Of a DNA stretch of 64,000 bases, positions 1,009-47,867 are shown in pieces. The stretch's first letter is position 1, and every line of letters starts with the position of its first letter. The DNA is from an uncultured Alphaproteobacteria bacterium (lineage in GTDB: Bacteria > Pseudomonadota > Alphaproteobacteria > RF32 > CAG-239). Both the position numbers and the translations under genes were made by a program. Where the stretch lies: assembly GCA_944391685.1 (NCBI GenBank), contig CALXUM010000003.1, positions 73,481-137,480 of the forward strand, in the 5' to 3' direction. The notes beneath the pieces are model-generated. The model worked only from the letters and a program-made list of their open reading frames with translations. It did no database searches and was not told where the DNA came from.

Positions 1009-1393
1009 TTTTCTAACTCCTTGATTTTATTAAATTATCCTTACATATTCTATACTGACATACCGTTGGTAAAACGCAAGTACTTTTTAGAAAAATATTA
1101 CTGTTTTTCAATAAGTTAGGCTGTTTTAAGGTAACAATTTATTGCGAAAATAGAATTTTTCATGTACAAAAGAATGAATTAATTATGGCTTTTTATTTTG
1201 ACAAAATTTAATTATTAATTAGTTTGTAGTTACAAGAAGTTAATATTTGCTGATTTGATTGCATTCAAGTTTAAATATTGTTTGATAGGCTTTTATTAGG
1301 TTTTCAAAAGTCAAAATTGCAGCGTGAGGTATTGACATTTAAGTCTTTTGTTAATAAGCTAATGCACATTCGTATAGCTAAAAAAATACCACA

Positions 1394-2392
1394 ATGAAAT
1401 ATATTGAAAGCAATAATCATATTGAAGAATTGTTTAAGAATCCTTGGTATCAAGTATTACTTAATACATTTAGTTCTGTTATCTCATATACTCATGACTT
1501 TTATAAAGAGAAAAAAATAAAACCTGTTATATTTCCAATAACAACAGGCTCTATTAGTTCTCCCATGGGGGAAGGAAGTGATTCGTTACCTGTTAAAGTC
1601 AATATTAGAGGTCAGGACGTGTTTCTTGCTGATTCTATGCAATTTAGCCTAGAAATAGGAACTCGCCTCACAGAGAAAGGGTGTTACTATATTATGCCCT
1701 CTTTTCGCGGAGAAGATGTCGACGAAAGACATTTAAATGAGTTTTTCCATTCAGAAGCAGAAATCAAGGGTAATTTAAATGATGTTATGAAAATTATTCA
1801 AGAATATATTTTGTACTTGAGCACAAGATTTCTTTCTGAATACAAAGATACTATAACGTCAATCTGCGGTGTTGAACATATTTTGGAGTTAGTCAACAAT
1901 CCTAAAAATCATTTTATTCAAATACCATATAAAACAGCATTAGAAGAACTTAAAAGTGTTAATGATGCTGTATCTAAAGATAATTTTGGTAATTTGATTA
2001 TTACAAAATATGGCGAAAAAGAATTAATTCGACGTTATGGAGATTTTTGTTGGTTAACAGAACTTCCAACCAAAATCGTTCCTTTCTATCAAGCTTCGGA
2101 AGAAAATGATTTTGAGACGGCAAAAGCTGCAGATTTACTCGCTGGAATTGGTGAGGTGGTTGGTTGCGGTGAGCGTTGTACTTCTGCACAAGATTTATTA
2201 AAATCGTTGGATTTCCATAAAGTATCTATTGATGATTATAAATGGTATTATGATATGAAAAATATCTGTCCATTACAAACGGCAGGTTTTGGTATGGGAA
2301 TTGAACGTTTTATACTTTGGTTATATCAACATGATGATATCAGAGACTGTATGCTACTCATCAGGAATCATAAACAACTGAACTTTCCATAA
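1394..2392 (+). CDS. class II aminoacyl-tRNA-synthetase-like catalytic core, AsnRS/AspRS type, no anticodon-binding domain
   Basis: 332 aa. Motif 2-like 'SFRGEDVDERHLNEFFHSEAE' and motif 3-like 'GFGMGIERFILWL'. 'LLAGIGEVVGCGER' parallels AsnRS 'LAPGIGEIIGGSQRE'. There is no N-terminal OB-fold segment. Confidence 0.75.
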   Translation: MKYIESNNHIEELFKNPWYQVLLNTFSSVISYTHDFYKEKKIKPVIFPITTGSISSPMGEGSDSLPVKVNIRGQDVFLADSMQFSLEIGTRLTEKGCYYIMPSFRGEDVDERHLNEFFHSEAEIKGNLNDVMKIIQEYILYLSTRFLSEYKDTITSICGVEHILELVNNPKNHFIQIPYKTALEELKSVNDAVSKDNFGNLIITKYGEKELIRRYGDFCWLTELPTKIVPFYQASEENDFETAKAADLLAGIGEVVGCGERCTSAQDLLKSLDFHKVSIDDYKWYYDMKNICPLQTAGFGMGIERFILWLYQHDDIRDCMLLIRNHKQLNFP

Positions 2393-2401
2393 GGAGTTAT
2401 C

Positions 2402-3232
2402 ATGGATTTAAGTAAATTAACAGAACAAGATATTATGAAAATGTCTTATAATGAGTTAATTGGATTGGTTAGAGAAACCAATCGAATTCCAGGAGGAGCA
2501 CAAACGGTTGCTTATATAGCATCTATGTGTTGTCTGCATGAAGGCAAGAGAGTATTAGATATAGGGACAAGTACAGGAAACACTGCAATAGATATTGCCT
2601 CTTTGTCAGGGGCAGAGGTGGTCGGCATTGACATTAATGAGGACAGCTTATCAGAAGCTAGAAAGCGGGCAAAAATTGTTGGTGTAGATTCAAAGACTAC
2701 TTTTGAATTAAATGATGCCATGAATCTATCCTTACCGGACAAGTTCTTTGATATGGTAATTTGCGGTAATGTTACATCGTTGCTTAGTGATAAAGAAAAA
2801 GCTCTTTCTGAGTATCAACGAGTTCTTCGAGACACCGGATTTTTAGTTGCGGTTCCCATGTATTATATAAAAAAGCCGTCAGATCAGTTAATCAAAGATG
2901 TTTCTAATGCAATTCAGGTCAACATTAAACCATTATACAAAGATTTTTGGATAGATTTCTTTACAAAAGGGGATTTTGAAATTTTTCTTGAGAAAGATTT
3001 TGCTTTTGATAACATAGACGAAGAAAAAATAAATCAATTTTGTGATTACATTTTATCAAGAGAACATCTAAAAGATTTAAATGAAAAAGCCGCCATCACC
3101 CTTAAAGAGGTTTATAGAAGATATATGCTACTATTTCGTTATAATTTATCGCATATGGGATATACAATCTTAATTTTAAGAAAATCACATAAAGAAATAG
3201 ATCCTGAATTATTTACAGCTCATGCTTTATAA
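2402..3232 (+). CDS. class I SAM-dependent methyltransferase
   Basis: 276 aa. Motif I 'VLDIGTSTGNTAIDIA', 'VVGIDIN', and upstream 'NRIPGG' typical of Methyltransf_11/25-type enzymes. Starts 9 nt after the aaRS-like gene, so probably co-transcribed. Confidence 0.75.
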   Translation: MDLSKLTEQDIMKMSYNELIGLVRETNRIPGGAQTVAYIASMCCLHEGKRVLDIGTSTGNTAIDIASLSGAEVVGIDINEDSLSEARKRAKIVGVDSKTTFELNDAMNLSLPDKFFDMVICGNVTSLLSDKEKALSEYQRVLRDTGFLVAVPMYYIKKPSDQLIKDVSNAIQVNIKPLYKDFWIDFFTKGDFEIFLEKDFAFDNIDEEKINQFCDYILSREHLKDLNEKAAITLKEVYRRYMLLFRYNLSHMGYTILILRKSHKEIDPELFTAHAL

Positions 3233-3244
3233 GAAAACTCCTCC

Positions 3245-3273
3245 AGAAAAAAGCCCTTGATAGGGCTTTTTTC
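3245..3273. terminator. bidirectional rho-independent terminator between convergent operons
   Basis: Hairpin AAGCCCT-tgat-AGGGCTT flanked by an A-run upstream and a T-run downstream. Confidence 0.6.
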
Positions 3274-3280
3274 TTAGGTG

Positions 3281-4153
3281 TTACTTTTTCTCAATAAGAA
3301 TCGTATAGCAAGCTGGTCGCACAGCCAGACGTTTATCAGCAAGAGTGAAGTTTTGTAAATCCATTTCTACCTCTTTTATAGTGGAGTTCCATTTATCTTC
3401 ACTACAATTATTAAATTCACCCTCAAGATGAAAGTTTAGAAATATTTCAAGAGCTTCTTCCATTGAGTCATAATATATTGGATCGCCAAGTAAGTGTTCA
3501 ATCTGATAATTAATTAGGTTTTGACTTTTTAAAATTTCTAAAGAATCTTTTATAGCCTCTAGAGATAAGCTTAATTTATTGCCTCGGTCATAAACGTACG
3601 ACTTTTTAGCCCACTGCTTCATTAGGATTTTTTGTTCATCAGACTGGGAATCGAAGTGAATGATAAAAAATTTACCATTATTGTTTAAGTTGTTTTCAAT
3701 AAATTTTTTTAGTATGTTATGAATATGTGATTTTCCCTGTTCTTCAGTTTTAAAGCGTTCAAGATGCTGGTGAACAGAATGAGAAAAACTCCATAAACTA
3801 AAACAAAAGTCATAATTTTCATTACAACTTTGCATATAATTGAGACTATCACTCAAAATTGCATTATGAATGGCATAGTTTTTACGAGAATAGTCTAACA
3901 TTTCAGTGCTCAAATCTAAAATATCTAAATCAGACTGAGGATATCTTTTTAAAAATTGTATAGTGCCGCGACCTGTTCCACAACCAAACTCCATCGCTTT
4001 GAAAGGAGTTGATATTTTTTTTAGAACGTTATCAAAAATTTCTATATCCGTTATTCCTGAAAAAGAATAAGTTTTAAGTAATTTTATATAGTAATCAGGA
4101 GGTAAATAATCTTCACGCTTCCTTTTCATCATAAAAGTTTTAAAGTTTTTCAT
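3281..4153 (-). CDS. class I SAM-dependent methyltransferase
   Basis: 290 aa. Motif I 'AMEFGCGTGRGTIQFL' and 'DILDLSTEML'. Last gene of the minus-strand three-gene operon. Confidence 0.7.
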   Translation of the reverse strand: MKNFKTFMMKRKREDYLPPDYYIKLLKTYSFSGITDIEIFDNVLKKISTPFKAMEFGCGTGRGTIQFLKRYPQSDLDILDLSTEMLDYSRKNYAIHNAILSDSLNYMQSCNENYDFCFSLWSFSHSVHQHLERFKTEEQGKSHIHNILKKFIENNLNNNGKFFIIHFDSQSDEQKILMKQWAKKSYVYDRGNKLSLSLEAIKDSLEILKSQNLINYQIEHLLGDPIYYDSMEEALEIFLNFHLEGEFNNCSEDKWNSTIKEVEMDLQNFTLADKRLAVRPACYTILIEKK

Positions 4154-4160
4154 TTTTCAC

Positions 4161-5183
4161 CTAAAATTTTAAGGATAAATCGCTAATATTTAATGTTGCT
4201 TCAATTCCATATGGCAAGGTCATCATTGGTTCAGTATGCCCAAAGTCCATACGAGAAATAATTGGTAGCTCAGGATGCCCAAACTCTTTGGCGACAATTC
4301 TCAAGGCCATTTCATCAAAAGAATCTAACATAGCCATATCATTAAAAAATTCTCCTGGGCGTCCAATCATTATTCCTTTAATTCTATCAAAACAACCCAT
4401 CAAACCGTAGTTTCTAAGACATTTCATAAAATAATTACTACCTAAGTTTATATCGGAGAGCTCTAAAAATAAAATAGCTCCATCAAAATCCGATTTATTA
4501 AAGAAATAATCTGTACCTTTTAACTGTTCTAAGCTTTCAATACATCCACCTATTAAATGACCGCGAACATTTTGACAACCTTGTAATAATTTAGGTGGAC
4601 AAGATTTGTTTAATTTTCTTTTGATTTTTTGATTATCAGGATTGCTCCAATCTAAGAATTCATTAGTCCATCCGGTTTGATTGGGATAAAATATATCGCA
4701 ACTATCATCACAAATCATTTTTTTTAAGCACTCATAAGAATATGGCTGCATTCCTCCATTTTCTGCAAAACCAGCCATAACAGTTGGTCCATAATAAGAA
4801 GTAATGCCAAGTTTATATAGAAAGACGTGAATAGCAGTTGCATCTGAGTATCCTAAAAAAATTTTAGGATTTTGTTTTATTTTTTCTATGTCTAGATATT
4901 TTAAAAATCTAACGCTATCATTACCACCAATATTACAAATAATTGCTTTTATATCCTTATCTTCTACCGCTTTCATAAAGTCTTCAGCTCGCCCTTCCGG
5001 ATGATCCTGTAACCATGCGTGAGATTTTAAGGAATTTGGCATTTCCACAACTTCAACATTAAATTTTTTTTTCAATTCTTCGATGCCCGCCTTATACCTT
5101 TCCGGAAAGATAGAGGCTGTTCCAAAAGAAATGGATATTGTTGCAACTTTATCACCTTTTTTTAATTTATTTGGTATAATCAT
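4161..5183 (-). CDS. S66 family serine peptidase (LD-carboxypeptidase / microcin C7 immunity MccF-like)
   Basis: 340 aa. 'RAEDFMKAVEDKDIKAIICNIGG', nucleophile motif 'GYSDATA', 'LFLELSD', and C-terminal 'DFGHTEP' (Ser/Glu/His triad context). The size matches the MccF-type subgroup. Confidence 0.75.
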   Translation of the reverse strand: MIIPNKLKKGDKVATISISFGTASIFPERYKAGIEELKKKFNVEVVEMPNSLKSHAWLQDHPEGRAEDFMKAVEDKDIKAIICNIGGNDSVRFLKYLDIEKIKQNPKIFLGYSDATAIHVFLYKLGITSYYGPTVMAGFAENGGMQPYSYECLKKMICDDSCDIFYPNQTGWTNEFLDWSNPDNQKIKRKLNKSCPPKLLQGCQNVRGHLIGGCIESLEQLKGTDYFFNKSDFDGAILFLELSDINLGSNYFMKCLRNYGLMGCFDRIKGIMIGRPGEFFNDMAMLDSFDEMALRIVAKEFGHPELPIISRMDFGHTEPMMTLPYGIEATLNISDLSLKF

Positions 5184-6573
5184 GAAATTTCTCCAAAATG
5201 GATGTATTTATCAAGCCCTGCTTATGCGTATTATTTTCTCTCTTTAAACTTGGAGCAACCGCGGAGATTGCTGTTGAAATTATAGCATACCTATTTTTTA
5301 TAGCATTTATATCGTAATTTTCTTTTGAGAATGCCTTCATATCATCAATAGCCCATTGCTCAATCGTCGATAAGACTTTATTGACTCTACCTTCTCTTAA
5401 GTGATTCTTAATTATTTGGTAATCTTCCGATTGAGGGGCAATATAATTATGGTTCTCAAAAACAGATAACCTATGAAAGTATTTTCTGAAATTTTTATAA
5501 GTCCCATTTAAAAATTGTTTATAACTATCTTCTGTTAATTTGTAATCTTTAATTTTATCAGGAACTCTTGAGGCGATAAACAGACGAACTTTACTCAATT
5601 CATCAGGAGTATAGCTGTCTTGCATTAAAATTGAGGCATCATTATCTTGTGTTAGGCAAAAACCACGAGCGGCAAATTTTATATTAAATTTTGATACATT
5701 AAAACCTTTATTGAAAATTGTTGGCATCATCAAAGAATAATAAGGTAAAATATTTTTGCCAAAATATGAAATCATTTTAACATTCTTAATATCATTAGCA
5801 ACATTTTCTGGTTTAGAAGACACTGCCAGCAATTTTGAAACCATAGAATCATACCATAAATAAATACTTTTTTCTTTATCTATTGGCATTTGTCTTCCAT
5901 AATTATTTCTTGTGAATGTCCAACAATCAAAATCTTTATTGTAAATATTTTGTATATTTGGAATAATATTTGATGTTGTATCCTGCTGTTCCACAAGATA
6001 TTTTAAAAAATCTGTCCTTGGAAGTAATAGGCCCCATTGCATATCCTGTCGTATTTCAACATTATTACTACCACATAATTTACAGACAAAATCTTCTTGT
6101 AATAGTTCTTCAATAGAAGAATGTTTTTTTAGTCGTCCCTCTTTTTGAGTTGTAATTTCACATTCTGATTTGGATAGGTCTTCATGGCAATCTTGACAAT
6201 AAAAAGAATAATCCTGCGTTTTAACTAATAAGCCATTTTTGTATAATTCACCTATAGAGTATTCAACAAATTCGTTCATTTTGGAATTATCAGAATCAAT
6301 ATATAGGTCAGGTTCAATGCCAAATTTAGATAAAGTTTGTCTGAACTCTTTTTTGCAATCAGTTATATATTGGGATTTGTTTTTAATGTGTCGCATAGCT
6401 CGGTATGCGTGCTTGCCATAAACATCAACTCCTGCAATCATTTGGCTTTCCTCACCAAATGATTTTAACATTTTATTTAATATGTCGGCAGGCAAATATG
6501 TGCTAGATATATTTGTATATCTAATTTTGGCAGGTATAAAAACATTTGCAGTTGTAATTAGATATTTAGACAT
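5167..6573 (-). CDS. methionyl-tRNA-synthetase-like paralogue with degenerate HIGH and KMSKS motifs
   Basis: 468 aa, collinear with the MetRS core: 'YLITTANVFIPAKIRYTNI' sits where 'PYANGxxHxGH' is expected, followed by a CxxC...CxxC knuckle region, 'IYLWYDS', and 'YFGKNILPYYSLMMPTIF'. 'DNDAS' occupies the KMSKS position. Overlaps the next gene by 17 nt. Confidence 0.65.
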   Translation of the reverse strand: MSKYLITTANVFIPAKIRYTNISSTYLPADILNKMLKSFGEESQMIAGVDVYGKHAYRAMRHIKNKSQYITDCKKEFRQTLSKFGIEPDLYIDSDNSKMNEFVEYSIGELYKNGLLVKTQDYSFYCQDCHEDLSKSECEITTQKEGRLKKHSSIEELLQEDFVCKLCGSNNVEIRQDMQWGLLLPRTDFLKYLVEQQDTTSNIIPNIQNIYNKDFDCWTFTRNNYGRQMPIDKEKSIYLWYDSMVSKLLAVSSKPENVANDIKNVKMISYFGKNILPYYSLMMPTIFNKGFNVSKFNIKFAARGFCLTQDNDASILMQDSYTPDELSKVRLFIASRVPDKIKDYKLTEDSYKQFLNGTYKNFRKYFHRLSVFENHNYIAPQSEDYQIIKNHLREGRVNKVLSTIEQWAIDDMKAFSKENYDINAIKNRYAIISTAISAVAPSLKRENNTHKQGLINTSILEKFHDYTK

Positions 6574-6731: not shown

Positions 6732-8669
6732 ATGGCGGAAAATATTGAGATTAAAAAGGTTGACGGCAAAAGTTTGGATATTGAGGCGGCTGATAAAGAA
6801 AAATTAAAAGCCGTGTTTCCGCAATGTTTTAGTGAAGGCAAACTGGATATAGACAAGTTGTTGTCTTTGTGTGGTGAATATATAGACAACGATTTTGAGA
6901 AATACAAGTTTGAATGGAAAGGCAAATCCGAGTGCTATAAAATTGCCGGTAAGCGTTCAACAGGAACTCTCCGCCCATGTGTGCAAGAAAGTGTGGATTT
7001 TGAAAATACCAATAATCTGTATATTGAGGGCGATAATTTAGAAGTCTTGAAGCTCTTGCAAAATGCTTATTATCGTAAGGTTAAGATGATTTATATAGAT
7101 CCGCCGTATAATACCGGTAATGACTTTGTTTATGAAGATGACTTCAAAGATCCTTTGGCAAAATATAAGGAAATTACATCGCAAACAACCAAATCTAACC
7201 CCGAAACTATGGGCAGATATCACACAAACTGGTTGAATATGATGTATCCTAGATTGCGTTTGGCGGCTAATTTGCTTCGTGATGATGGTGTGATTTTTAT
7301 TTCTATTGATGATAATGAAGTTACAAATTTGAGAAAACTTTGTGATGAAGTCTTCGGTGAGGAGAATTTTGTTGGTTTGTTTACTATTCAAAGTAATCCT
7401 AGAGGCTCACAAAATAGTAAATTTTTATCTTATGTACATGAATATGTTTTAATGTATGCAAAAAGTATGGATTGCTTAGAAATAAAAGGCGTTGAAAAAG
7501 ATGAAGGTTCTATATCTGAATATTCATTAAAAGATGATAATGGTAGGATGTATCGTCTTTTAGGATTAAGAAAAAGAGGCGGTGCATGGAGAAAGGAGGA
7601 TAGACCTAATATGTTTTATCCTGTTTTTGTAAATCGCGAGACGCATGCAGTATCTTTAACAAAAATGAATGATGCGGATATTGAAGTGATTCCTCAAAGA
7701 CCTACTGGTGAGTTGAGTAGATGGACATGGGGAAAAGATAAATTTATTCAAGAAATAGATAAAGTTGTAGCCAAAAAAGTTAATAGAACTGGGGAGCCAG
7801 ATGCGTGGGATATATTTAGAAAAGATTTTATAGATAATGATAATGGTGAGATTAAAACTACAAAAATAAAAACTATTTGGATTGAAAAAGAAACAAATTA
7901 TCAAAATGCAAAAAATGAAATAAAAGAACTCTTTGGTAATTCAGAAATTTTTGATTTTCCTAAGCCGATTTATGTAGTAAGTAGACTTGCATCAATGCTG
8001 TTCACTGATGATACAGATATAATTCTAGACTTTTTCTCTGGTTCAGCAACCACAGCCCATGCTGTTATGCAAATGAATGCTGATGATCAAATAAAACGTC
8101 AATTTATTATGGTCCAACTTCCTGAATTATGCAACGAAAATTCACAAGGAGCGAAAGCCGGTTATAAAAATATTTGTGAAATCGGTAAAGAACGTATCCG
8201 CCGTGCTGGAGCTAAGATTAGAGCAGAACATCCCGAAGTTGATACGGGATTTAAGGTTTTCAAATTAGATACTTCAAATCTCGTAAAATGGGACGATACG
8301 CCGATTTTAGATAATAACACCCAAGATTTGTTTACTCGTATGAACAATATGGTTGAAAGTATCAAAACAGACCGAACGGAATTAGATGTTGTTTATGAGG
8401 TTATGTTAAAACTCGGTATTCCGGTTACTTACAAGATTTTTGAAACTCAAGTAAATGGCAGAAAGGTATATTCAATCGGTGAAGATGGTTTGGTTTTGGT
8501 CTGCTTGGATAAATCAAACGGCGGAATTACACCGGAAGACATAACTGCAATGTGTGATTTGGCTCCTGCCAAAATTGTTGCCGCTGAAAATGCTTTCAAA
8601 GATGACGTTGCCCTCTCTAACGCATATTATATCAGTAAAGACAAAGGTATTGAAATAGAGCTGTTGTAG
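6732..8669 (+). CDS. mod: type III restriction-modification DNA methyltransferase (Mod, N6-adenine)
   Basis: 645 aa. 'MIYIDPPYNTGNDFVYEDDF' (DPPY motif IV), 'FFSGSATTAHAVMQ' (motif I), and overall type III Mod layout. Confidence 0.9.
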   Translation: MAENIEIKKVDGKSLDIEAADKEKLKAVFPQCFSEGKLDIDKLLSLCGEYIDNDFEKYKFEWKGKSECYKIAGKRSTGTLRPCVQESVDFENTNNLYIEGDNLEVLKLLQNAYYRKVKMIYIDPPYNTGNDFVYEDDFKDPLAKYKEITSQTTKSNPETMGRYHTNWLNMMYPRLRLAANLLRDDGVIFISIDDNEVTNLRKLCDEVFGEENFVGLFTIQSNPRGSQNSKFLSYVHEYVLMYAKSMDCLEIKGVEKDEGSISEYSLKDDNGRMYRLLGLRKRGGAWRKEDRPNMFYPVFVNRETHAVSLTKMNDADIEVIPQRPTGELSRWTWGKDKFIQEIDKVVAKKVNRTGEPDAWDIFRKDFIDNDNGEIKTTKIKTIWIEKETNYQNAKNEIKELFGNSEIFDFPKPIYVVSRLASMLFTDDTDIILDFFSGSATTAHAVMQMNADDQIKRQFIMVQLPELCNENSQGAKAGYKNICEIGKERIRRAGAKIRAEHPEVDTGFKVFKLDTSNLVKWDDTPILDNNTQDLFTRMNNMVESIKTDRTELDVVYEVMLKLGIPVTYKIFETQVNGRKVYSIGEDGLVLVCLDKSNGGITPEDITAMCDLAPAKIVAAENAFKDDVALSNAYYISKDKGIEIELL

Positions 8670-8675
8670 GGGGAA

Positions 8676-9338
8676 ATGATGAAAAAACTAATAAAATACT
8701 TTTTAATTTTAATATTTCTAATTTTTATATTAAGTTTTTGGGGTGTTTCCGTAGATCCTATTTGGCTTTCTAATATAAAGTGTTCGTTTGAACAAAACAC
8801 TATTTCTTTTTTTGATTTTATTATAGATACAGGAAATTCAATTAGTTTAGTTTTTGCTGTTTTAATTTTATGTTGCTTATTTAAATCTGAGATCTCTACT
8901 TTGATAAAATCTATATCTCAAAAAATATCAGAAATAAAAGTTTTAAGAATTAATCAGTGGCAATTAGAAACACTAGAAAAAGTTGAAAAAGAAGCTGAAA
9001 AGATACCTCATAAAACGATAAAAATAAATAACAGACAGCCCATAGATAGGTTTATGCACTCATGGATTAACTTTGAAAAAATATTTATGAAAGGATTAAA
9101 TCAATTTAATATAAGAACTGCTCTCTATGAAAGGTACAAATCGGGATTATTTGTTAAAGATGAATATGAATTTTTACTATTTATACTTAGGACAAGAAAT
9201 CAAGTTTTTCACGGTGAAAATATCTTTATATCTGATGAAGTTTATTTACAAATGTCTGATTTTTTAGATAGTTTAAGCATTATTTTGGAATATAAATGGA
9301 AAAATGAAGATCAAAAACGAAAAATAAGCAAAAAATAA
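8676..9338 (+). CDS. membrane-anchored protein with putative C-terminal HEPN-like domain
   Basis: 220 aa. Hydrophobic segments 'LIKYFLILIFLIFILSFWGV' and 'ISLVFAVLILCCLF'. C-terminal helical part contains 'LRTRNQVFHGE' (R-N-x3-H, fits the HEPN Rx4-6H signature). Starts 7 nt after the mod stop. Confidence 0.45.
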   Translation: MMKKLIKYFLILIFLIFILSFWGVSVDPIWLSNIKCSFEQNTISFFDFIIDTGNSISLVFAVLILCCLFKSEISTLIKSISQKISEIKVLRINQWQLETLEKVEKEAEKIPHKTIKINNRQPIDRFMHSWINFEKIFMKGLNQFNIRTALYERYKSGLFVKDEYEFLLFILRTRNQVFHGENIFISDEVYLQMSDFLDSLSIILEYKWKNEDQKRKISKK

Positions 9339-9396
9339 TAAAAACTATTTTCTTATGATTCACACCAAAAATAAATGAGGTTTATAAATAATACCG

Positions 9397-10032
9397 ATGG
9401 ATATAGTAAGCATAATTAATCAAATATCTTTCGCAGATGCCGGTAAAAGCCTTTTAAAAAAGTATCAAAATAAAAAAAAGGAAAACTTGCGTTGGGTTAT
9501 TGAAAAAGAAATGCGCCAAGGAGATTTTTCTCGTGTTAATGAAGATGATATGATTGCTATTTTCTACAGATTGACTCGCGAAGCATTAGAAGGTACGGCT
9601 ATATGCAATTTACGACTTATGGCACGTTTGATTTGTGGGTTAAATGAAAAAGGACAATTAACGGCAAATAATTTTCAAAAACACGCAAAAATATTAGCAG
9701 ATTTAGATGAAAATGAAATTGTACTTCTTGCAACAACTATAAAGTACCTAGAGAAGAATAACGATTCTTTTGAAATATATGATAGAGCATTAGATAATGC
9801 TTTAATAGAATTATTTGGCGAAAAACAAGGTAAAATTAATATATTATCCTATCATTCTTTACTGACAGGATTGCAACGTACAGGTTTGGTTGTAAAAAAT
9901 GGCATGGGGTCAAGCAAGTACAAATATGGACACGAATTTTCGTTAACTCCAAAATTTAAGGAATTGGTTGATTTATTTCCTAACTGGGAAGATATTGCAA
10001 CTTACTCTTGTGTAGGTAATAAAGAAAGATAA
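9397..10032 (+). CDS. hypothetical protein (no recognised domain)
   Basis: 211-aa ORF on the same strand, between the HEPN-like gene and the Mrr-like gene. Only a 4-nt gap to the next gene. Confidence 0.5.
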   Translation: MDIVSIINQISFADAGKSLLKKYQNKKKENLRWVIEKEMRQGDFSRVNEDDMIAIFYRLTREALEGTAICNLRLMARLICGLNEKGQLTANNFQKHAKILADLDENEIVLLATTIKYLEKNNDSFEIYDRALDNALIELFGEKQGKINILSYHSLLTGLQRTGLVVKNGMGSSKYKYGHEFSLTPKFKELVDLFPNWEDIATYSCVGNKER

Positions 10033-10036
10033 GATA

Positions 10037-10936
10037 ATGACAAATACCGGAATTGAATATGAACTTTTTGTGCAAAATTTAATGCAAGCTATACTTAATT
10101 CTGAAAATCAAGGCGGGCAGAAAAACATTAAAGTAAGACACAATGAAAAAATCGCTGATAAATTTGGTGTTGAACGGCAGTTTGATGTACTCTGGGAATA
10201 TGAATTAGGGGGAATCATCTATAATACAGTTATTGAATGTAAAGATTATAATTCCCCCATATCCATTGAAAAAATAGACGCTTTAATTGGTAAATTAAAA
10301 GATTATCCAAATTTTAGAGGAATTATTGCGACCACTAAAGGTTATCAATCAGGAGCTAAAGAAAAAGCCAAAAATAGTGGTATCGAATTATTGTGTGTTA
10401 GAAAATCTGATGATAGTGATTGGGTTAATGAAAAAGGGCAGCCCTTAGTAAGAAAAATATCCTTAAATATTACGATATGTCCATCGCCTGTGATTATAAA
10501 ATGTAAGACTTTTCTTGATAAGAAATACCTTGACGAAAACAATATAGATATAGAACAGATTAATATTTCAGATCCGTTAAATACTGAAGTTTTTATAGAA
10601 GATAAAACTAAAAATGAAAAATATTCCTTATATGAATTACAACAAAAAATTGCAAATAAAAATGATGATTATGGACTTCATGAAAAAGATATTGAATTTG
10701 AGGATGCTTATATTGTTAGGCAAAATATCAGACTAAAACTAAAAAAGCTTCATATTATATATTCAATAGCTCAACCATGTACTGAAACAATAACAATAGA
10801 CGGAGCAGATTATATTCTTGGTGTTGTGGAATATTTAAATCAAGGTAAGAAAAAGACTGTTTTTAATACTCCATATGAAGGAACACAAGTAAAAAATGAA
10901 GCCCTTCCCAATAAGTCTTTGGAGAAAAATTCATGA
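10037..10936 (+). CDS. Mrr-cat / PD-(D/E)xK restriction-endonuclease-like domain protein with unknown C-terminal domain
   Basis: 299 aa. N-terminal 'GIEYELFVQNLM...', 'RQFDVLWE...' and 'VIECKDY...IDALIGKL...GIIATTKGYQSGAKEKA...GIELL' follow the Mrr_cat pattern (E, D, ExK). Its stop overlaps the res start (ATGA). Confidence 0.65.
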   Translation: MTNTGIEYELFVQNLMQAILNSENQGGQKNIKVRHNEKIADKFGVERQFDVLWEYELGGIIYNTVIECKDYNSPISIEKIDALIGKLKDYPNFRGIIATTKGYQSGAKEKAKNSGIELLCVRKSDDSDWVNEKGQPLVRKISLNITICPSPVIIKCKTFLDKKYLDENNIDIEQINISDPLNTEVFIEDKTKNEKYSLYELQQKIANKNDDYGLHEKDIEFEDAYIVRQNIRLKLKKLHIIYSIAQPCTETITIDGADYILGVVEYLNQGKKKTVFNTPYEGTQVKNEALPNKSLEKNS

Positions 10937-13900
10937 AACTAAAGTTTAAGAATCAAGATTTTCAAAATGATGCTGTAGAAACGGTGGCAAGGCTTTTCAA
11001 AGGGCAAGAAAAGGCTAATACGACTTTTTCCATCTCGGATAATTCGGCTCAATATAATTTGCTTGAAAACGAGTTTGGCTTAGGCAACCGTCTTTTGATT
11101 GATGCCAAAACATTACAAGAAAACTTAAACACCGTGCAAAAGGCTCATGCCTTGCCTCAAACCGAAATTGATTCAGCTCAGGCTTTTCCTATCTCCGTTG
11201 AAATGGAAACCGGTACTGGAAAGACTTTTGTATATACCAAAACCATATTAGAGTTAAACAATCTTTACGGATTTACAAAATTTATTATTGTTGTGCCGAG
11301 TGTGGCTATTCGTGAAGGTGTTTATAAGTCTTTGCAAGTTACCGAAGATTATTTCAAAAACCAATATAATCGCCCTTATCACTACTTTATTTATAATTCT
11401 GCCAAACTCAATGCCGTTAAGAGTTTTGCAACTTCTGATAATATTGAGATTATGATTATTAATATTGACGCGTTCAAAAAAGCCGAAAATGTCATTAATC
11501 AAGAACAAGACAAATTAAACGGCGAAACGGCAATGCGTTATATTCAAAACACTAATCCGGTGGTGATTATTGATGAGCCGCAAAGTGTTGATAATACACC
11601 AAAAGCCAAAGAGGCGATTGCTTCACTTAATCCGCTTTGTGTCTTGAGATATTCGGCGACACACCGAGAAAAGCAAAATCTGGTTTATCGTTTGACGCCG
11701 GTTGATGCTTACCAAATGGGCTTAGTCAAACAAATCAGCGTGATTTCCAATTCAATCCTTAATGATTCAAACAAGCCTTATATTGCTCTGAAGGCTGTGT
11801 CTAATGCTAACGGATTTACCGCCAAGATAGAGATAGACGTTGAAAATAAAGAGGGACTGGTTAGCCGTAAGACAATTACGGTTAAACCGAATGATGATTT
11901 GTTTATTCTCTCCGGACACCGCGAACTTTATGAAGATTATGTCGTTTCCGGTATTGATTGCACTCCGGGGTATGAATGTATTGAGTTTTCTAATGCAGAA
12001 ACGGTTAATCTTGGAAAAGCGATTGGCTCCGTTGATGAAAATGTGATAAAACGTGCTCAAATCTACCACACTATAAAAACGCATTTAGATAAAGAATTAC
12101 GCTATTTTGATAAAGGGATTAAGGTTTTGTCGTTGTTCTTTATTGATGAGGTTAAAAAATATCGAACGGAAGACGGCGGCAAAGGAATTTATGCCCAGAT
12201 GTTTGAAGAATGTTACAACGAACTGATGGCTAAACCTAAATATGCCGTTTTGAAAGAAAAGTTTAATACGGATGTTGCAAAAGCTCATAACGGCTATTTC
12301 TCTCAAGATAAAAAAGGAAAATATAAAGACACCAAAGGCGACACGCTTGCAGATGATGATACATACAATACCATTATGAAAGACAAAGAGTGGTTGTTGT
12401 CTTTTGATTGTCCGTTAAGGTTTATCTTTTCTCACTCTGCCCTGAAGGAAGGTTGGGATAACCCGAATGTTTTTCAGGTTTGCACGCTTATCGACCAAAA
12501 ATCCGTGTTTACCTGTCGTCAAAAAGTCGGTCGTGGTTTGAGATTATGCGTTAATCAAAATGGTGAACGTATTGAAGACAAAGACATCAACATTCTGCAC
12601 GTGGTGGCAAATGAGAGTTTTGCCGAGTTTGCTCAAAAACTGCAAACCGAAATTGAAACTGAAACCGGCGTTAAGTTTGGCGTACTTGAATTGAGTATGC
12701 TGATTGGCTTGACTTATGATGAGGAAAAAGAAGTTCAAAAAGAAATTTCGCCCGAGATTGCAACGATTGTGATTGAAGATTTACAAAAATCAGGCGTTAT
12801 TGATGAACAAGGCTCTCTCAAAAATGAAGTGGCTCCGGAAGAAATTCAACTGACGAGTATTCCCGAGGCTATAAAACAAGAAGTTGTCAAAACCATAAAG
12901 AACGAAAAAACAGTTTCGGTTGCGGCTCTGGCCAGCAAAACTTATACTGAAAAAGTCGTTGAGAAAAAAGTTATTGATTATCACGAAGCCGCTCAAATGA
13001 TTGAAGACCTGAAAGAAAGCAAGGTTATTGATAAAAACGGCAAAATCAAAGATACAATGAAAGCTCAGCTTGCCGCAGGAACACTTAATTTGAACGAAAG
13101 GTATTCTAAAGCGGCTCAAAGAGCGATGTTGCAGGCCTTAAACAAAGCCGATACCAAGACAATTATCCGAGACGCAAGTAAAGAAGTTACGGTTCGACTG
13201 AAAAAGCAAGCCATAATCAGCCCCGAATTTTTGGAGCTTTGGAATAAAATCAAGCAAAAAACGACTTATCGGGTTAATTTTGACTTAGATGTCTTAGTGG
13301 CTAACTGTATTAAAGACTTAAAAGAAATGCCGGCTATATCTACCGCCCGATTAATTAGTCAGACTGCTGATATTGAAATTCAAAAATCAGGCGTTTCGCA
13401 TATTGAAAGAGCCATGGTTTCAACCAATTTAGAGCGAAACTATGATGTTTTGCCCGATATTTTAAGGTTGATATCCATAAAAACCTTATTAAAACGCTCA
13501 ACCATCAATAAAATTATTCAAGAAAGCGGTCGTGGAACGGACTTCCTCAAAAATCCGCAAGAGTTTTACGAAAAGACTTTAGAAATTATCAAACGAAACC
13601 GCCACAAATTGGCTATTGACGGTATTAAATATGTAAAACTTGCCGGTGAGGAATATTATATTCAAGAGATTTTTGATAGTTCCGAACTTATTGCCAACCT
13701 TGATAAAAACGCGGTGGCCGTGGAAAACAGCATATATGATTATGTGATTTATGACAGTAGTGTTGAAAATAAATTTGCCGTTGCTCTTGATAATGATCCT
13801 GATGTTAAGATGTTTTTCAAAATTCCGAGCCGCTTTACCATTGAAACACCTATCGGACCCTATAACCCCGATTGGGCGGTTTATTTGGAAAAGAACGGCG

Positions 13901-14073
13901 AACAGAAACTTTACTTTGTCTTAGAAACCAAAGGTACTGATTTTATTTATGGTTTGCGACCGGAAGAAGCCTTAAAGATTCATTGCGGATATGAACATTT
14001 TAAGGCTCTTGATAATGTTACATTCTCCGAAAATCCGGTTAAAGACTGGAGAGAATTTAAGCAAACGGTATGA
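10933..14073 (+). CDS. res: type III restriction enzyme Res subunit (helicase-nuclease)
   Basis: 1046 aa. N-terminal 'LKFKNQDFQNDAVETVARLF', Walker A 'METGTGKTFVYTKT', 'VVIIDEPQ', helicase C region 'HSALKEGWDNPNVFQ', and C-terminal 'YNPDWAV...LYFVLETKG' PD-(D/E)xK. Confidence 0.9.
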   Translation: MKLKFKNQDFQNDAVETVARLFKGQEKANTTFSISDNSAQYNLLENEFGLGNRLLIDAKTLQENLNTVQKAHALPQTEIDSAQAFPISVEMETGTGKTFVYTKTILELNNLYGFTKFIIVVPSVAIREGVYKSLQVTEDYFKNQYNRPYHYFIYNSAKLNAVKSFATSDNIEIMIINIDAFKKAENVINQEQDKLNGETAMRYIQNTNPVVIIDEPQSVDNTPKAKEAIASLNPLCVLRYSATHREKQNLVYRLTPVDAYQMGLVKQISVISNSILNDSNKPYIALKAVSNANGFTAKIEIDVENKEGLVSRKTITVKPNDDLFILSGHRELYEDYVVSGIDCTPGYECIEFSNAETVNLGKAIGSVDENVIKRAQIYHTIKTHLDKELRYFDKGIKVLSLFFIDEVKKYRTEDGGKGIYAQMFEECYNELMAKPKYAVLKEKFNTDVAKAHNGYFSQDKKGKYKDTKGDTLADDDTYNTIMKDKEWLLSFDCPLRFIFSHSALKEGWDNPNVFQVCTLIDQKSVFTCRQKVGRGLRLCVNQNGERIEDKDINILHVVANESFAEFAQKLQTEIETETGVKFGVLELSMLIGLTYDEEKEVQKEISPEIATIVIEDLQKSGVIDEQGSLKNEVAPEEIQLTSIPEAIKQEVVKTIKNEKTVSVAALASKTYTEKVVEKKVIDYHEAAQMIEDLKESKVIDKNGKIKDTMKAQLAAGTLNLNERYSKAAQRAMLQALNKADTKTIIRDASKEVTVRLKKQAIISPEFLELWNKIKQKTTYRVNFDLDVLVANCIKDLKEMPAISTARLISQTADIEIQKSGVSHIERAMVSTNLERNYDVLPDILRLISIKTLLKRSTINKIIQESGRGTDFLKNPQEFYEKTLEIIKRNRHKLAIDGIKYVKLAGEEYYIQEIFDSSELIANLDKNAVAVENSIYDYVIYDSSVENKFAVALDNDPDVKMFFKIPSRFTIETPIGPYNPDWAVYLEKNGEQKLYFVLETKGTDFIYGLRPEEALKIHCGYEHFKALDNVTFSENPVKDWREFKQTV

Positions 14074-14077
14074 TAAA

Positions 14078-16642
14078 ATGGGCTATTCTCGGTTACAATC
14101 ATCATTTGAGGCGGTATGGAAGGCTAGAAAATTAGCCGGTTTAGTTCATGATGATAATTTTTTGCCGGTTTATGCTTCTGCCAATATCAAAATTTTGCCT
14201 TATCAAATTGCCGCGGCCAGATTTGCCTTGCGTTCGGGCAATCTAAAAGGTTGTATTTTGTGTGATGAAGGTAGTTTGGGAAAAACCTACGAGGCGTTGT
14301 TGGTTGTTTCCCAGCGCTGGTATGAAGGAAATGAACATATTTTAATTGTTTTGCCGCAAAATTTAATATCACAATGGCTAAGCAAACTCACGGAAGAATT
14401 TAATTTACCGCTTATTGACTGGGCAGAATATACGCAAGAAAGCCAAGGTGTATGCTTAACAACTTATGAAAATGTTGTTAAAAACGCCGATAAAATTGCC
14501 TCTATTAATTGGAATTTGGCTGTTTTTGATGAAGCTGATTTTCTCTTTAAACCCGACAATAAGTCCGTTATGGTGATTAAAAACGCAATCGGAAATGCTT
14601 TCAAACTTCTTTTGACACCAACGCCGATTACTATGAGTATTATGGATATTTATGGTCTTATTCATTTTATTGATGAAACATTATTGCCGGACGCAGACAG
14701 TTTTTATAAACGCTATTTCAGAAAGCCTGAAAATTATCCCGAATTATCATCTTGGGTATCGCAATTTGCTTTTCGTACCTTAAAAAAACAGGTCGAACCG
14801 TATGTTAATTTTACTAAACGGTTGCCTTTTGTGTTAAATTACTCACCTCAAGATGAAGAAAAACAACTTTATGACTTGGTAGCCAAATATTTATCTTTGC
14901 CAAACAAAACCGCTTATCCGCAAATGGATAATTACCAACTGGCTTTACAGTTTTATCATACTTTGTCATCTTCTTCACAAGCCTTTGGCCAAATGCTTGA
15001 AGCTCCGATTGAACGTGCCGAAAATGAGGAAAAAGTATTTTTGCAAGAAATACAAAAACTTGCCTTAAAGATTAAACTTTCTGCCAAAATGCAAGAATTA
15101 TTAACGGCATTAAAGACCATTTTTGCACATCTAAGATCTCGCAAGGAAACACAAAAAGTTCTTATATTTGTAGAAAACTCAACCACATTGACGATATTGG
15201 CTGATTTGTTGCAAGCAGAACAATATACGGTTATCACACACACCGATAAAAATGCTTTGGAAAAATTCCGAGAAGATAAAAATATTCAGATTTTCTTGAC
15301 TAACGATACAACAGCCAAAGGACTTGATATTGAGTATTGTCCGGTGGTTATAAATTATGATTTGCTTTATAATGCCGTTGAAATGGAGCAAAGAATCTGT
15401 CGTTGCCACCGCCAAGGACAAAATTCTGATGTTTTGGTTGTTAATTTGCTTAGTAAGGAAAATATGTCTGATGTGCGTATTTTGGAGCTGATTAACAAAC
15501 GAACATTACAATTTCAGGGGATTTTTGGAATGTCCGATGATATTGTCGGCAATTTTGATGAAAAATTATCTGATGTTTTGCAAAAACGGCGGACTTTATC
15601 CGATATTCAAAATGATTTTATGACGAATATGAATATCAATAAAAATGCAAACGCTCAAATTGTATCTGAGGCGGAAAGCGTCTTATTTACCACTTTTACC
15701 AAAGATATTGCCGAAAAAGTTCAAGTTTCACCAAAATATATTCAAGAACAAGCCGAATGTATTAATCAAGATTTATGGGAAGTCGTAAAGTTTTATTTTG
15801 AAAAGTATTTTCCTCAATATATTATAGATAACACCAACAAAACCTTAACCTTATCTGAAAATTGTCCGCCACCTTGCTTGTTTTATTATTCAAGCGGAAA
15901 CAGAAATGTGCCGTACACCGGAAAGAAATGCTACGGTATGTCTAAAGATTTTAAGCCGGCTTCCCATCGTATTACCTTAACCTCAATTTTGGTGAAAGGA
16001 ATTTTGGAAGAAATTAAATGTTCTGAAAACGGAAAAATTAAGATAAACGGCAATGTTCCTTGTTGTGAAATTTCTATGTATAATGTGGTGTTGCGGCAAA
16101 ATAAAACTTTTTTAAGAACGTATGATATTTTGTTTGGGCAATATGAAAACAGAGATATCTTATCTCAAGATGAATGTGAAAAGATTTTGGCTCAACCTGT
16201 TGAAAGTTGTGAAGAAACAGGACAGGAAACGGCTTATTGGCTTAAGTTGATGTCTTCTTCCAATGTAAAGTTACCAAATATTATTGAAGAAACCATAAAA
16301 AAAGATTATCTCAAAGAGCAAGAAAAGTCTTTTAATGCGGATATTGATATCATCAAGATGAAAGCAAGTCGGCAAAAATCTATTTTGGAGCAAAATATTA
16401 ATATTGCTAAAGCCGAAGTAAAGAAAATCAAAGATAAATTGTCTTGTGCCACCGATAGACTGGAAGAATTAAAAATACAAAAACAATTAAATTGCCAAGA
16501 AAAAAATTTAAGAAAAAAAGAAGAAGGTCTGTTTTTAGAACAAATGCAGATTGAGACCGCCACTGAGGAAGAAATAGAAAAACTTAGTAAGGTTGATGAA
16601 ATATTTGTAAACAATTCGTTAATATTTAGAATAAGATATTAA
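14078..16642 (+). CDS. SNF2-family helicase with long C-terminal extension
   Basis: 'ILPYQIAAARFAL', 'CDEGSLGKTYEA' (motif I), 'VFDEADF' (II), 'LLLTPTPITMS' (III), and 'AKGLDIEYCPVVINYDLLYNAVEMEQRICRCHRQGQ' (V-VI). ATG at 14078 lies 4 nt after the res stop. The track start at 13991 would overlap res. Confidence 0.85.
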   Translation: MGYSRLQSSFEAVWKARKLAGLVHDDNFLPVYASANIKILPYQIAAARFALRSGNLKGCILCDEGSLGKTYEALLVVSQRWYEGNEHILIVLPQNLISQWLSKLTEEFNLPLIDWAEYTQESQGVCLTTYENVVKNADKIASINWNLAVFDEADFLFKPDNKSVMVIKNAIGNAFKLLLTPTPITMSIMDIYGLIHFIDETLLPDADSFYKRYFRKPENYPELSSWVSQFAFRTLKKQVEPYVNFTKRLPFVLNYSPQDEEKQLYDLVAKYLSLPNKTAYPQMDNYQLALQFYHTLSSSSQAFGQMLEAPIERAENEEKVFLQEIQKLALKIKLSAKMQELLTALKTIFAHLRSRKETQKVLIFVENSTTLTILADLLQAEQYTVITHTDKNALEKFREDKNIQIFLTNDTTAKGLDIEYCPVVINYDLLYNAVEMEQRICRCHRQGQNSDVLVVNLLSKENMSDVRILELINKRTLQFQGIFGMSDDIVGNFDEKLSDVLQKRRTLSDIQNDFMTNMNINKNANAQIVSEAESVLFTTFTKDIAEKVQVSPKYIQEQAECINQDLWEVVKFYFEKYFPQYIIDNTNKTLTLSENCPPPCLFYYSSGNRNVPYTGKKCYGMSKDFKPASHRITLTSILVKGILEEIKCSENGKIKINGNVPCCEISMYNVVLRQNKTFLRTYDILFGQYENRDILSQDECEKILAQPVESCEETGQETAYWLKLMSSSNVKLPNIIEETIKKDYLKEQEKSFNADIDIIKMKASRQKSILEQNINIAKAEVKKIKDKLSCATDRLEELKIQKQLNCQEKNLRKKEEGLFLEQMQIETATEEEIEKLSKVDEIFVNNSLIFRIRY

Positions 16643-40770: not shown

Positions 40771-41211
40771 ATGAAAATTAAATTTGTTACACATAATCTA
40801 AAAGTTACTGGATTTAAGTATTTTTGGTTAAAATATGTAAGGGGCTTTGACCCTACAGTTCATTGTGCAAAGTGCTTAATTGGCGATTATTCTCAAAAAG
40901 TTAATCTCTATATGCCGGTTAATACCGAAATTGAGCTAAATGAATTTTCAGACTATAAATGTTTATATCTTTGTGGCGTAATCGGTTATGTAAATAACCT
41001 TCACGTTCCCTTTGTTCCAAGCGATAATGAAAATGATATCATTACCGCTGAAACATATCTGGGAGATAAAGTCATTATAACCGGAGCAAAGCGTTTGCCA
41101 ATTCCGCCGTTAGAAAATGGTTATAATGGTTTATCTCGTGCTTTCACATCTTGCCGTAATTATCAATTTGGAGTTAGTTACCTTTTGCCAATGCAAAATG
41201 ATAAGCATTGA
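40771..41211 (+). CDS. hypothetical protein, opposite-strand insert
   Basis: 146-aa plus-strand ORF between the small terminase and the ParB-methyltransferase gene. Its 3' end overlaps the latter by 38 nt. Confidence 0.4.
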   Translation: MKIKFVTHNLKVTGFKYFWLKYVRGFDPTVHCAKCLIGDYSQKVNLYMPVNTEIELNEFSDYKCLYLCGVIGYVNNLHVPFVPSDNENDIITAETYLGDKVIITGAKRLPIPPLENGYNGLSRAFTSCRNYQFGVSYLLPMQNDKH

Positions 41212-47751: not shown

Positions 47752-47786
47752 AAAAAAGAAAAAAGCCCTTGAATTTCAAGGGCTTG
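47752..47786 (-). terminator. rho-independent terminator of tRNA-Thr
   Basis: AAGCCCTTGAA-a-TTCAAGGGCTT followed by TTTTTTCTTTTTTT on the minus strand, a few nt after the tRNA 3' end. Confidence 0.6.
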
Positions 47787-47791
47787 GAAAC

Positions 47792-47867
47792 TGGTGCCGA
47801 TTGAGAGACTTGAACTCCCGACCCACTGATTACAAATCAGTTGCTCTACCAACTGAGCTAAATCGGC
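47792..47867 (-). tRNA. tRNA-Thr (anticodon UGU), CCA encoded
   Basis: Reverse complement GCCGATTTAGCTCAGTTGGTAGAGCAACTGATTTGTAATCAGTGGGTCGGGAGTTCAAGTCTCTCAATCGGCACCA folds by hand into a cloverleaf: 7-bp acceptor stem, D arm GCTC/GAGC, anticodon stem ACTGA/TCAGT with loop TTTGTAA, and T loop TTCAAGT. Confidence 0.9.

Follow-up and report, generated by a model that had tools for sequence, protein, structure and literature searches.

The stretch analysed here (hereafter the window) comprises 64,000 nucleotides of contig CALXUM010000003.1, positions 73,481 to 137,480, from an uncultured alphaproteobacterium of the CAG-239 lineage, and it carries a compact group of five genes, referred to below as the cassette (Table 1). 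All five open reading frames (ORFs) are intact and are arranged as two convergent operons. The plus-strand operon encodes the catalytic core of a class II aminoacyl-tRNA synthetase (aaRS) and an S-adenosylmethionine (SAM)-dependent transferase, MT1, separated by 9 nt (2393-2401). The minus-strand operon begins with a protein derived from methionyl-tRNA synthetase (MetRS), termed pseudo-MetRS, which overlaps the following S66 serine hydrolase gene by 17 nt (5167-5183) and is completed by a second SAM methyltransferase (MTase), MT2. The 48-bp convergent spacer contains the hairpin AAAAAAGCCCT-TGAT-AGGGCTTTTTT, which folds with -23.9 and -23.1 kcal/mol on the two strands and occurs as a single copy in the window, with 0 chance matches expected. 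The original prediction for this locus, made from the letters of the sequence, had described two convergent operons sharing a bidirectional terminator, with exactly this gap and this overlap, and all of these points were reproduced. The terminator was not detected by a simple terminator scanner, probably because its A/T runs are able to pair. No other aaRS gene was found in the 64-kb window besides those of the cassette.

Table 1. Features of the five-gene cassette and its upstream flank (positions are those of the window).
Feature	Position	Strand	Length	Remark
AgnA-type class II aaRS catalytic core	1394-2392	+	332 aa	
MT1, AgnB1/MccD-family SAM-dependent transferase	2402-3232	+	276 aa	
Bidirectional intrinsic terminator	3247-3272			common to both convergent operons; hairpin folding
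MT2, second divergent class I SAM methyltransferase	3281-4153	-	290 aa	last in minus operon
MccF/AgnC5-type S66 serine hydrolase	4161-5183	-	340 aa	
Pseudo-MetRS (MetRS-derived, without ATP motifs)	5167-6573	-	468 aa	first in minus operon
Indel site relative to 97%-identical strains	1150-1253			blastn of window against L183

The product of the first gene matched the D/K/N class II core in Pfam (PF00152, 126 bits) over residues 13-322 of 332, and the catalytic domain alone was recovered, with no anticodon-binding domain. Likewise, it aligns only to positions 135-455 of the asnS model, the N-terminal OB anticodon-binding domain being unmatched. The AsnRS-type catalytic core named in the original prediction was therefore recognized again, and the lack of an anticodon domain means that the protein is neither an asparaginyl-tRNA synthetase (AsnRS) nor a housekeeping synthetase. 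Its best NCBIfam match was asparagine synthetase A (AsnA) with 227 bits against a cut-off of 389, and a second AsnA model gave 219 bits (cut-off 322). By blastp, the core is 41% identical over 331 residues (E 2e-90) to AgnA, encoded by the agrocin plasmid pAgK84, and a tblastn search against plasmids hit the same protein, annotated as "Agrocin84-synthetase", with 100% coverage. The core retains intact motifs 2 (FRGE..RHLxEFxxxE) and 3 (GFGMGIER), which, like its AsnRS-type pocket residues, are invariant among 30 relatives. An AlphaFold2 (AF2) model with a predicted local distance difference test (pLDDT) value of 89 gave a template modelling (TM) score of 0.82 to P. horikoshii AsnRS bound to asparaginyl-adenylate (Asn-AMP). 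More than 1,100 relatives were returned by sequence search. The core is presumed to be an ATP-dependent ligase that builds an acyl-N-P-nucleoside link.

MT1 has a SAM-MTase domain (76 bits in Pfam), so that the fold expected from the original prediction is present, but it belongs to the AgnB1/MccD type rather than to the generic methyltransferases. It is 46.5% identical to AgnB1 (blastp, E 1e-81), with which it has the N-terminal motif MSYNELIG..ETNRxPGG in common (ETNRPPGG in the AgnB1 comparison), and about 30% identical to the MccD of E. coli plasmids. Its best match in the PDB was MccD (5fcd), with 101.7 bits over the full length (residues 4-261 aligned with residues 7-266), compared with about 53 bits for generic MTases, and MccD is its sole strong relative of solved structure. 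Among 72,556 plasmids, full-length MT1 matches were confined to agn-like and mcc loci. MccD has been reported to move the 3-amino-3-carboxypropyl group of SAM onto the phosphoramidate of microcin C (PMC10491745). MT1 also gave a partial match to PADLOC mad2 of the MADS system (70 bits, residues 8-151), which probably reflects MTase-fold similarity only. In the Xenorhabdus bovienii megaplasmid L178, a trio of AgnA-like, MTase and S66 genes is followed by a nucleoside phosphorylase/nucleosidase of the PNP_UDP_1 family (11974-12729). Methylthioadenosine (MTA) nucleosidase stimulates MccD, and the L178 gene hints that the MT1 family releases MTA, as in 3-amino-3-carboxypropyl transfer, rather than S-adenosylhomocysteine. 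MT2 gave a weak match to Methyltransf_25 (37 bits in Pfam); blastp found no agn or mcc counterpart of it, and its PDB matches were weak and uninformative. MT2 is kept in all close relatives of the cassette and recurs in the unrelated cassettes L102, L142 and L164.

The S66 protein has both the N- and C-terminal Peptidase_S66 domains (108 and 93 bits in Pfam). Among solved structures it scored 262 bits to B. anthracis BA3275 and about 113 bits to MccF, whereas the true LdcA structures of E. coli and Pseudomonas gave about 23-25 bits; against the NCBIfam LdcA model NF008424 it reached 63 bits (cut-off 378). It is 30% identical to AgnC5, annotated as "MccF-like" (blastp, E 3e-53). In E. coli MccF numbering, the window protein keeps Ser118, Glu243, His311 and Trp186, the last of which stacks on adenine in MccF (PMC8323819), and AgnC5 likewise conserves the catalytic triad and Trp186. 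Across the cassettes, Ser118, His311 and Trp186 are present in all S66 proteins and Glu243 in all except that of L006, which has Asp; the MccF residues N220, R246 and K247 are not conserved in the window protein. The S66 peptidase had originally been called MccF/LdcA-type, and by its bit scores, triad and Trp186 it is assigned to the MccF/AgnC5 clade and not to the LdcA clade. It is presumed to cleave an acyl-N(phosphoramidate) bond for self-immunity, processing or both.

The pseudo-MetRS matched MetRS in Pfam (PF09334, 96 bits) and scored 77 bits against the NCBIfam MetRS model, which has a cut-off of 587. Its AF2 model (pLDDT 81) adopts the full MetRS fold, including the helical C-terminal domain, with TM-scores of 0.65-0.72 to MetRS structures. 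The sequence RYTN stands in place of HAGH and the KMSKS loop is deleted; the Zn knuckle is retained, with two CxxC motifs and invariant Cys126, 129, 164 and 167. An exhaustive scan of 1.84 billion representatives gave a rare and discrete family of about 55 representative clusters, 450-515 residues long and scoring at least 200 bits, which a word-indexed protein search under-counts (14-24 matches, known members being missed). KMSKS occurs in none of the 46 full-length members and HxG[HN] in three, compared with 65 and 78, respectively, of the 91 canonical MetRS below the score break. Asp50, Trp240 and Ile275 are invariant in the family and align with Met-pocket residues of canonical MetRS, with roles as assigned in the E. 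coli enzyme; Arg303 replaces the pocket His. The anticodon NxxxR motif is not consistently conserved, in an alignment that is poor over the C-terminal domain. As HIGH and KMSKS are missing, the protein is neither a working, nor a resistant, nor a housekeeping MetRS. The MetRS-like assignment of the original prediction was thus upheld, whereas a role as a resistant spare MetRS was not. The pseudo-MetRS was found solely in cassettes of this kind, often beside a canonical extra MetRS, the two standing together in five larger clusters. Proteins of this kind, with the MetRS fold but no ATP motifs, make up a new and coherent family of aaRS paralogues.

The gene set is co-inherited as a unit. Its conservation elsewhere, on which the original prediction depended, was found in metagenome-assembled genomes (MAGs) of gut and rumen Alphaproteobacteria, where the identical five-gene unit occupies three unrelated chromosomal contexts: at 97% identity beside the same restriction-modification (R-M) island, at 81% between a gene for a PAS kinase and AsmA/DsbD, and at 64% between rpoBC and FlaF. 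In addition, a four-gene colinear form (class II core, MT1, S66 and MetRS-like) is present at about 30% identity in a Woesearchaeote and other lineages, and class II relatives at 45-56% identity are still accompanied by S66 and MT1 genes. Among 22 metagenomic AgnA-like loci flanked to either side by 8 kb or more, an S66 gene lay within 8 kb in 18 and MT1 in 11, and none of 35 controls had them. From these counts, the pseudo-MetRS is an accessory of a broader core consisting of the class II protein and S66 with or without MT1, and this AgnA-like/S66(/AgnB1-like) core is met again in Proteobacteria, Firmicutes, Actinobacteria and DPANN archaea.

Related clusters also contain genes characteristic of the handling of toxic aminoacyl-nucleotide compounds. 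Spare full-length aaRS genes were found for LeuRS (Xenorhabdus), AlaRS (Exiguobacterium) and MetRS (Photobacterium, Marinimicrobium, Acetivibrio and two metagenomic clusters), SerRS, GlyRS-type and class II D/K/N-type genes occur in gut Firmicutes clusters, and the related cluster L091 has a GluRS-family gene. In nearly all related clusters there is, in addition, a second aaRS-like protein in truncated form, of MetRS-, AlaRS-, class IIa- or AgnC1-like type, and for Met and Ala this type corresponds to that of the full-length spare aaRS in the same cluster. The AlaRS-like partner retains the motif 2 and 3 arginines, whereas the MetRS-like partner is without the class I motifs. Exporters of the major facilitator superfamily (MFS) or ATP-binding cassette type are present in related clusters, and one carries a RimL/MccE2-type GNAT. 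In Woesearchaeota (L006/L014, 6308-6949), a gene for an S51 peptidase stands directly upstream of the four-gene cassette; S51 enzymes form the MccG family of microcin C immunity (PMC9239234).

In a Hadza gut Alphaproteobacteria MAG (L011, 10001-12993), a decayed cassette has a split MetRS-like gene and a truncated MT2, with the AgnA-like and MT1 genes missing, which suggests that the cassette is dispensable. Larger cassettes in Photobacterium galatheae (L015), Marinimicrobium locisalis (L016), Vibrio ostreicida (L017) and Acetivibrio saccincola (L094) add YcaO, TfuA, ThiF-rhodanese and ThiS, a thioamidation or sulfur-transfer module, as well as LuxC/D/E, B12-radical SAM genes and a conserved protein of about 700 residues of unknown family; their products are probably sulfur-containing, lipid-tailored relatives. 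The ThiF genes of the gammaproteobacterial relatives are rhodanese-fused and stand beside ThiS, TfuA and YcaO, and are therefore of the sulfur-transfer type. Sulfur insertion as the core logic (a thioamide or thio-acid, then S-methylation to a Met isostere) was considered and rejected: neither the window nor the majority of cassettes has the sulfur genes, which thus represent lineage-specific tailoring. At five loci on human-gut Firmicutes contigs (L125, L127, L134, L161 and L109), a short Rel protein (HD, RelA_SpoT and TGS domains, about 480 residues) is encoded directly upstream of the AgnA-like gene, and at L125, the locus checked, the Rel stop codon overlaps the AgnA-like start codon. This adjacency may reflect synteny within the lineage, or else a functional tie to the enzymes of nucleotide alarmones. 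On Pantoea agglomerans plasmids (L177, 8716-11227), the AgnA-like ORF has an N-terminal fragment from the C-terminus of a RimL/MccE-type GNAT and adjoins an MFS transporter gene; this could represent a minimal system of two genes, or the start of the ORF may be mis-called.

By sequence comparison, then, three of the cassette genes are homologues of AgnA, AgnB1/MccD and AgnC5/MccF with their active-site residues intact. The closest system is that of agrocin 84 from Rhizobium rhizogenes K84, which the original prediction had not named. In the annotated agn locus of pAgK84, agnA is followed after 16 nt by the SAM enzyme gene agnB1 and then by agnB2, and agnC5 is labelled "MccF-like"; the agnA-agnB1 order is the same in the window, where the gap is 9 nt. 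Both systems further include an MccF-like S66 protein and a class I aaRS-family gene, and both are mobile, being plasmid-borne in strain K84 and island-borne in the window. The agn locus, however, has 17 genes, including those for the agrocin-resistant LeuRS AgnB2 and the exporter AgnG, neither of which is in the window, and genes for the pentanamide, the 3'-deoxy-nucleoside and the opine-like uptake moiety, which the window also lacks. Except for AgnC5, none of AgnC1-C7 had a blastp or hidden Markov model match in the window, and agnD, agnE and agnG were judged absent solely from the want of a transporter or further cassette ORF. The window contains no functional, inhibitor-resistant full-length aaRS of the AgnB2 type; its aaRS-family partner is MetRS-derived and catalytically degenerate, and its second MTase is extra.

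The microcin C system (mccABCDEF) shares with the window an MccD-family SAM transferase and an MccF-family S66 protein with the adenine-stacking Trp, and the product class proposed for the window, a non-hydrolysable aminoacyl-adenylate mimic with an N-P bond, is the same. It differs in having MccA, the ThiF-type MccB, the exporter MccC and MccE, all four absent from the window, where a class II aaRS core would stand in for the logic of a ribosomally produced, post-translationally modified peptide. The original prediction had recognized no MccB/ThiF-type enzyme, precursor peptide or exporter, and this agrees with the searches, in which the cassette gave no PF00899 match in Pfam and no transporter ORF was seen in or beside it. 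The only MccA-like mini-ORF, MYKRMN (1162-1182), which ends in Asn, was rejected as a precursor, as no Shine-Dalgarno sequence precedes it and L001, L013, L096 and L102 do not have it; no conserved small ORF that could support a PEARL-like scaffold-peptide logic was found. Through the agn and mcc homologies, the cassette links the agrocin and microcin C pathways by shared enzymes.

Agn homologues are likewise combined with a MetRS-family gene in a small number of agn-like clusters from Actinobacteria (Travin, Severinov and Dubiley 2021), where this gene was proposed to serve immunity and a MetRS-directed product was inferred (PMC8323819). Those clusters were found via AgnC1, are large and carry a MetRS that the authors take to be an immunity spare; the window, in contrast, has no AgnC1 homologue, its MetRS-family protein lacks HIGH and KMSKS, its host is a gut alphaproteobacterium and its relatives include archaea. 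Archaeal asparagine synthetase A (AS-AR)/AsnRS has the same class II fold, motifs 2 and 3 and pocket residues as the window core, which, however, scores below the AsnA cut-off and is clustered with S66 and MccD-type genes, as would not be expected of a housekeeping asparagine synthetase. The hydrazine synthetase PyrN (PDB 9l8v) resembles the pseudo-MetRS as a MetRS fold recruited to secondary metabolism. PyrN was solved with a glutamyl-adenylate analogue and binds adenylates, whereas the pseudo-MetRS is without ATP motifs and without the cupin domain that PyrN carries. Despite the structural match, membership in the PyrN type was rejected for the missing cupin domain and for a sequence much closer to true MetRS (about 119-132 bits, versus 48 bits for PyrN). 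Natural P-N mimics of aminoacyl-AMP are also known in the phosmidosines of Streptomyces, which are prolyl phosphoramidate nucleotide antibiotics (PMC6429109, PMC11229370). The searched literature held no phosmidosine gene cluster. The phosmidosine phosphate carries an O-methyl group, and this would set a precedent for the action of SAM enzymes on such a scaffold.

On the whole, we think it somewhat likelier than even that the five genes form one horizontally mobile cassette, a minimal relative of agn and mcc, making an N-acyl-phosphoramidate mimic of an aminoacyl-adenylate, and this product is probably aimed at MetRS. The original suggestion of an aminoacyl-nucleotide chemistry of the Trojan-horse type, distinct from classical microcin C, is thus supported by the AgnA, AgnB1/MccD and MccF/AgnC5 homologies. 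In the proposed pathway, the AgnA-type core would couple, at the expense of ATP, an acyl or amide group resembling an amino acid to a nucleotide via an N-P bond, and the AgnB1/MccD-type enzyme would alkylate the intermediate from SAM, transferring either a methyl or a 3-amino-3-carboxypropyl group and acting most plausibly on the phosphoramidate. A further methyl group may be added by MT2. The MccF-type S66 protein would cut the acyl-N bond to protect the producer, and possibly take part in processing too. The pseudo-MetRS might provide methionine-type recognition, either by sequestering a toxic Met-AMP mimic or as a non-adenylating ligase partner, and the likely target would be the MetRS of competitors.

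Several points weigh against this proposal. No product is known for the cassette, which in the window lacks an exporter, a functional resistant aaRS and genes for nucleoside tailoring, and agnC1-C4, C6, C7, D and E are without recognized homologues there. The agrocin pathway itself was stated to be unknown in a 2021 review, where formation of the phosphoramide bond by AgnA is a proposal only and AgnB1 is proposed to act on the pentanamide, not the phosphate (PMC8323819). The pseudo-MetRS is without the motifs that normally hold ATP or the adenylate, which weakens the decoy and ligase ideas alike. Three of the 22 AgnA-like loci have no partner gene, and the presence of the cassette in DPANN archaea and reduced gut genomes could mean a non-antibiotic role. 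Moreover, the amino-acid pocket of the AgnA-like proteins keeps AsnRS-type residues in every lineage, whatever the partner aaRS, and these proteins may therefore do a common step rather than select the warhead.

It is also conceivable, and in our judgement rather unlikely, that the cassette represents, in minimal form, a large modular pathway with two synthetases that extends across phyla. The AgnA-type core would then carry out a universal step, MccB-like chemistry on Asn or Asp within an AsnRS active site, to give an aspartamidyl-adenylate or an adenosine-phosphoramidate donor, and the MccF-type S66 protein would be a biosynthetic step, not immunity alone. A swappable second aaRS-derived protein (MetRS-, AlaRS-, ProRS- or HGTP-type) would set which aaRS is poisoned. 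The MetRS-derived member would in that case be a new ATP-independent paralogue, perhaps a transferase with Met-tRNA or an already formed adenylate as its substrate, or a decoy taking up the toxin.

The surroundings of the cassette have the features of an accessory island. As originally stated, a DUF3768 gene (640-1008, 104 bits in Pfam) and an R-M system, here recognized as Type III-like, adjoin it, and the GC content is 0.29-0.33 across 1-11 kb compared with 0.35-0.41 further along the window. The defence island (6732-16642) encodes a Type III-like Mod protein (N6_N4_Mtase), two unknown ORFs, an Mrr_cat nuclease, a Res subunit (ResIII and RE_endonuc) and a DrmD-like SNF2 helicase (260 bits in PADLOC), and looks like a DISARM/Type III hybrid. 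A lambda-like prophage (about 17500-47900) integrated at tRNA-Thr (47792-47867) carries genes for tail J, tape-measure protein, capsid E, a lambda-family portal and gpA terminase, together with a ParB-methyltransferase fusion (41174-42574) and an integrase (46326-47501). The region of 1-17 kb had no megablast match among phage genomes. A 16-nt exact identity, AGAAAAAAGCCCTTGA, is shared by the cassette terminator (3245-3260) and the tRNA-Thr terminator (47757-47772); an att repeat marking prophage cargo was rejected as its explanation, the two being distinct terminator hairpins whose stems begin alike. At the indel site, the 97%-identical strains have a 656-bp segment encoding a 174-residue P-loop (AAA_18/dNK-like) protein co-directional with the AgnA-like gene (corresponding region L183 15180-16125), in place of which the window carries 104 unrelated bp. 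Small P-loop kinase-like genes are also present in cassettes L125, L117 and L092, and a deoxynucleoside kinase gene in that of Exiguobacterium.

This setting bears on explanations in which the cassette does not serve antibiotic production. The genes might make no compound at all and neutralise imported aminoacyl-nucleotide antibiotics by S66 hydrolysis, methylation and sequestration on the pseudo-MetRS: stand-alone homologues of MccF, MccE2, MccG and MccH are common resistance genes (PMC9239234, PMC8323819), the window has neither an exporter nor a resistant aaRS, and the cassette is located in an accessory/defence island. We consider such an immunity island quite unlikely, for the constant anchor across the family is the AgnA-like gene, translationally coupled to MT1, and detoxification offers no obvious task for an ATP-dependent ligase core whose motifs are intact. 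The same location, with a Type III R-M/DrmD-like island and a prophage adjoining the cassette in the window and in the 97%-identical strains, could instead indicate an abortive-infection function, in which an aaRS poison would be made inside the cell on infection, with the S66 protein and pseudo-MetRS as a safety catch; the lack of an exporter and the low GC content shared with the island would fit this. Yet the lineages of 81% and 64% identity hold the cassette among core genes, no PADLOC system was matched (three of the five proteins had no match, MT1 had the partial mad2 match and MT2 18 bits to a generic MTase), and related clusters have exporters and resistant aaRS genes like antibiotic producers, all of which makes an anti-phage role distinctly improbable.

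Two further possibilities, each of which we regard as very improbable, place the genes outside the chemistry of antibiotics altogether. Public annotations ("asparagine synthetase A", "LD-carboxypeptidase" and "class I tRNA ligase family protein") would accord with chance adjacency of primary-metabolic AsnA, LdcA, two housekeeping MTases and a spare MetRS, asparagine synthetase A being indeed the top NCBIfam match of the class II core. The equivalog scores, however, lie far under their cut-offs for AsnA (227/389), LdcA (63/378) and MetRS (77/587), the S66 protein gives about 25 bits to true LdcA versus 113-262 bits to the MccF type, HIGH and KMSKS are missing from the MetRS-like protein, the class II core is homologous to AgnA and MT1 to AgnB1, and the genes, conserved together in different phyla, are mobile as one unit. 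A macromolecule might otherwise be the substrate, with the class II core aminoacylating a protein or tRNA, the pseudo-MetRS acting as substrate or adaptor, the MTases methylating the adduct and the S66 protein removing it. Indeed, aaRS paralogues without an anticodon domain are known to modify proteins or tRNA, such as PoxA/GenX, which lysylates elongation factor P, and GluQRS, and retention of the fold and Zn knuckle without the catalytic motifs in the pseudo-MetRS would be in keeping with such a role. Nonetheless, the homologues AgnA, AgnB1/MccD and MccF are all tied to small-molecule nucleotide antibiotics, most AgnA-like/S66 loci have no pseudo-MetRS, and the anticodon NxxxR motif is not consistently conserved in the family alignment, poor as this is C-terminally.

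Systems of the agn and mcc kind are already known, and what is new, to our knowledge, is the five-gene mobile cassette with a degenerate MetRS paralogue, which occurs in gut Alphaproteobacteria and DPANN archaea. No earlier description of the cassette, or of the breadth of the AgnA-like/S66 family, was found in the searched literature, although paywalled work may exist, and literature searches yielded nothing relevant on YcaO/TfuA with MetRS or LuxCE, nor newer work on AgnA. As a production system for an N-acyl-phosphoramidate mimic, the cassette would offer a small, tractable system for the synthesis of such warheads, and its relatives suggest a sizeable untapped family of nucleotide antibiotics targeted to aaRS, some of them in the human gut. 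Should the pathway with two synthetases prove true, there would be hundreds of unrecognized clusters for aaRS-specific phosphoramidate nucleotide antibiotics in bacteria from soil, marine and human-gut habitats as well as in DPANN archaea.

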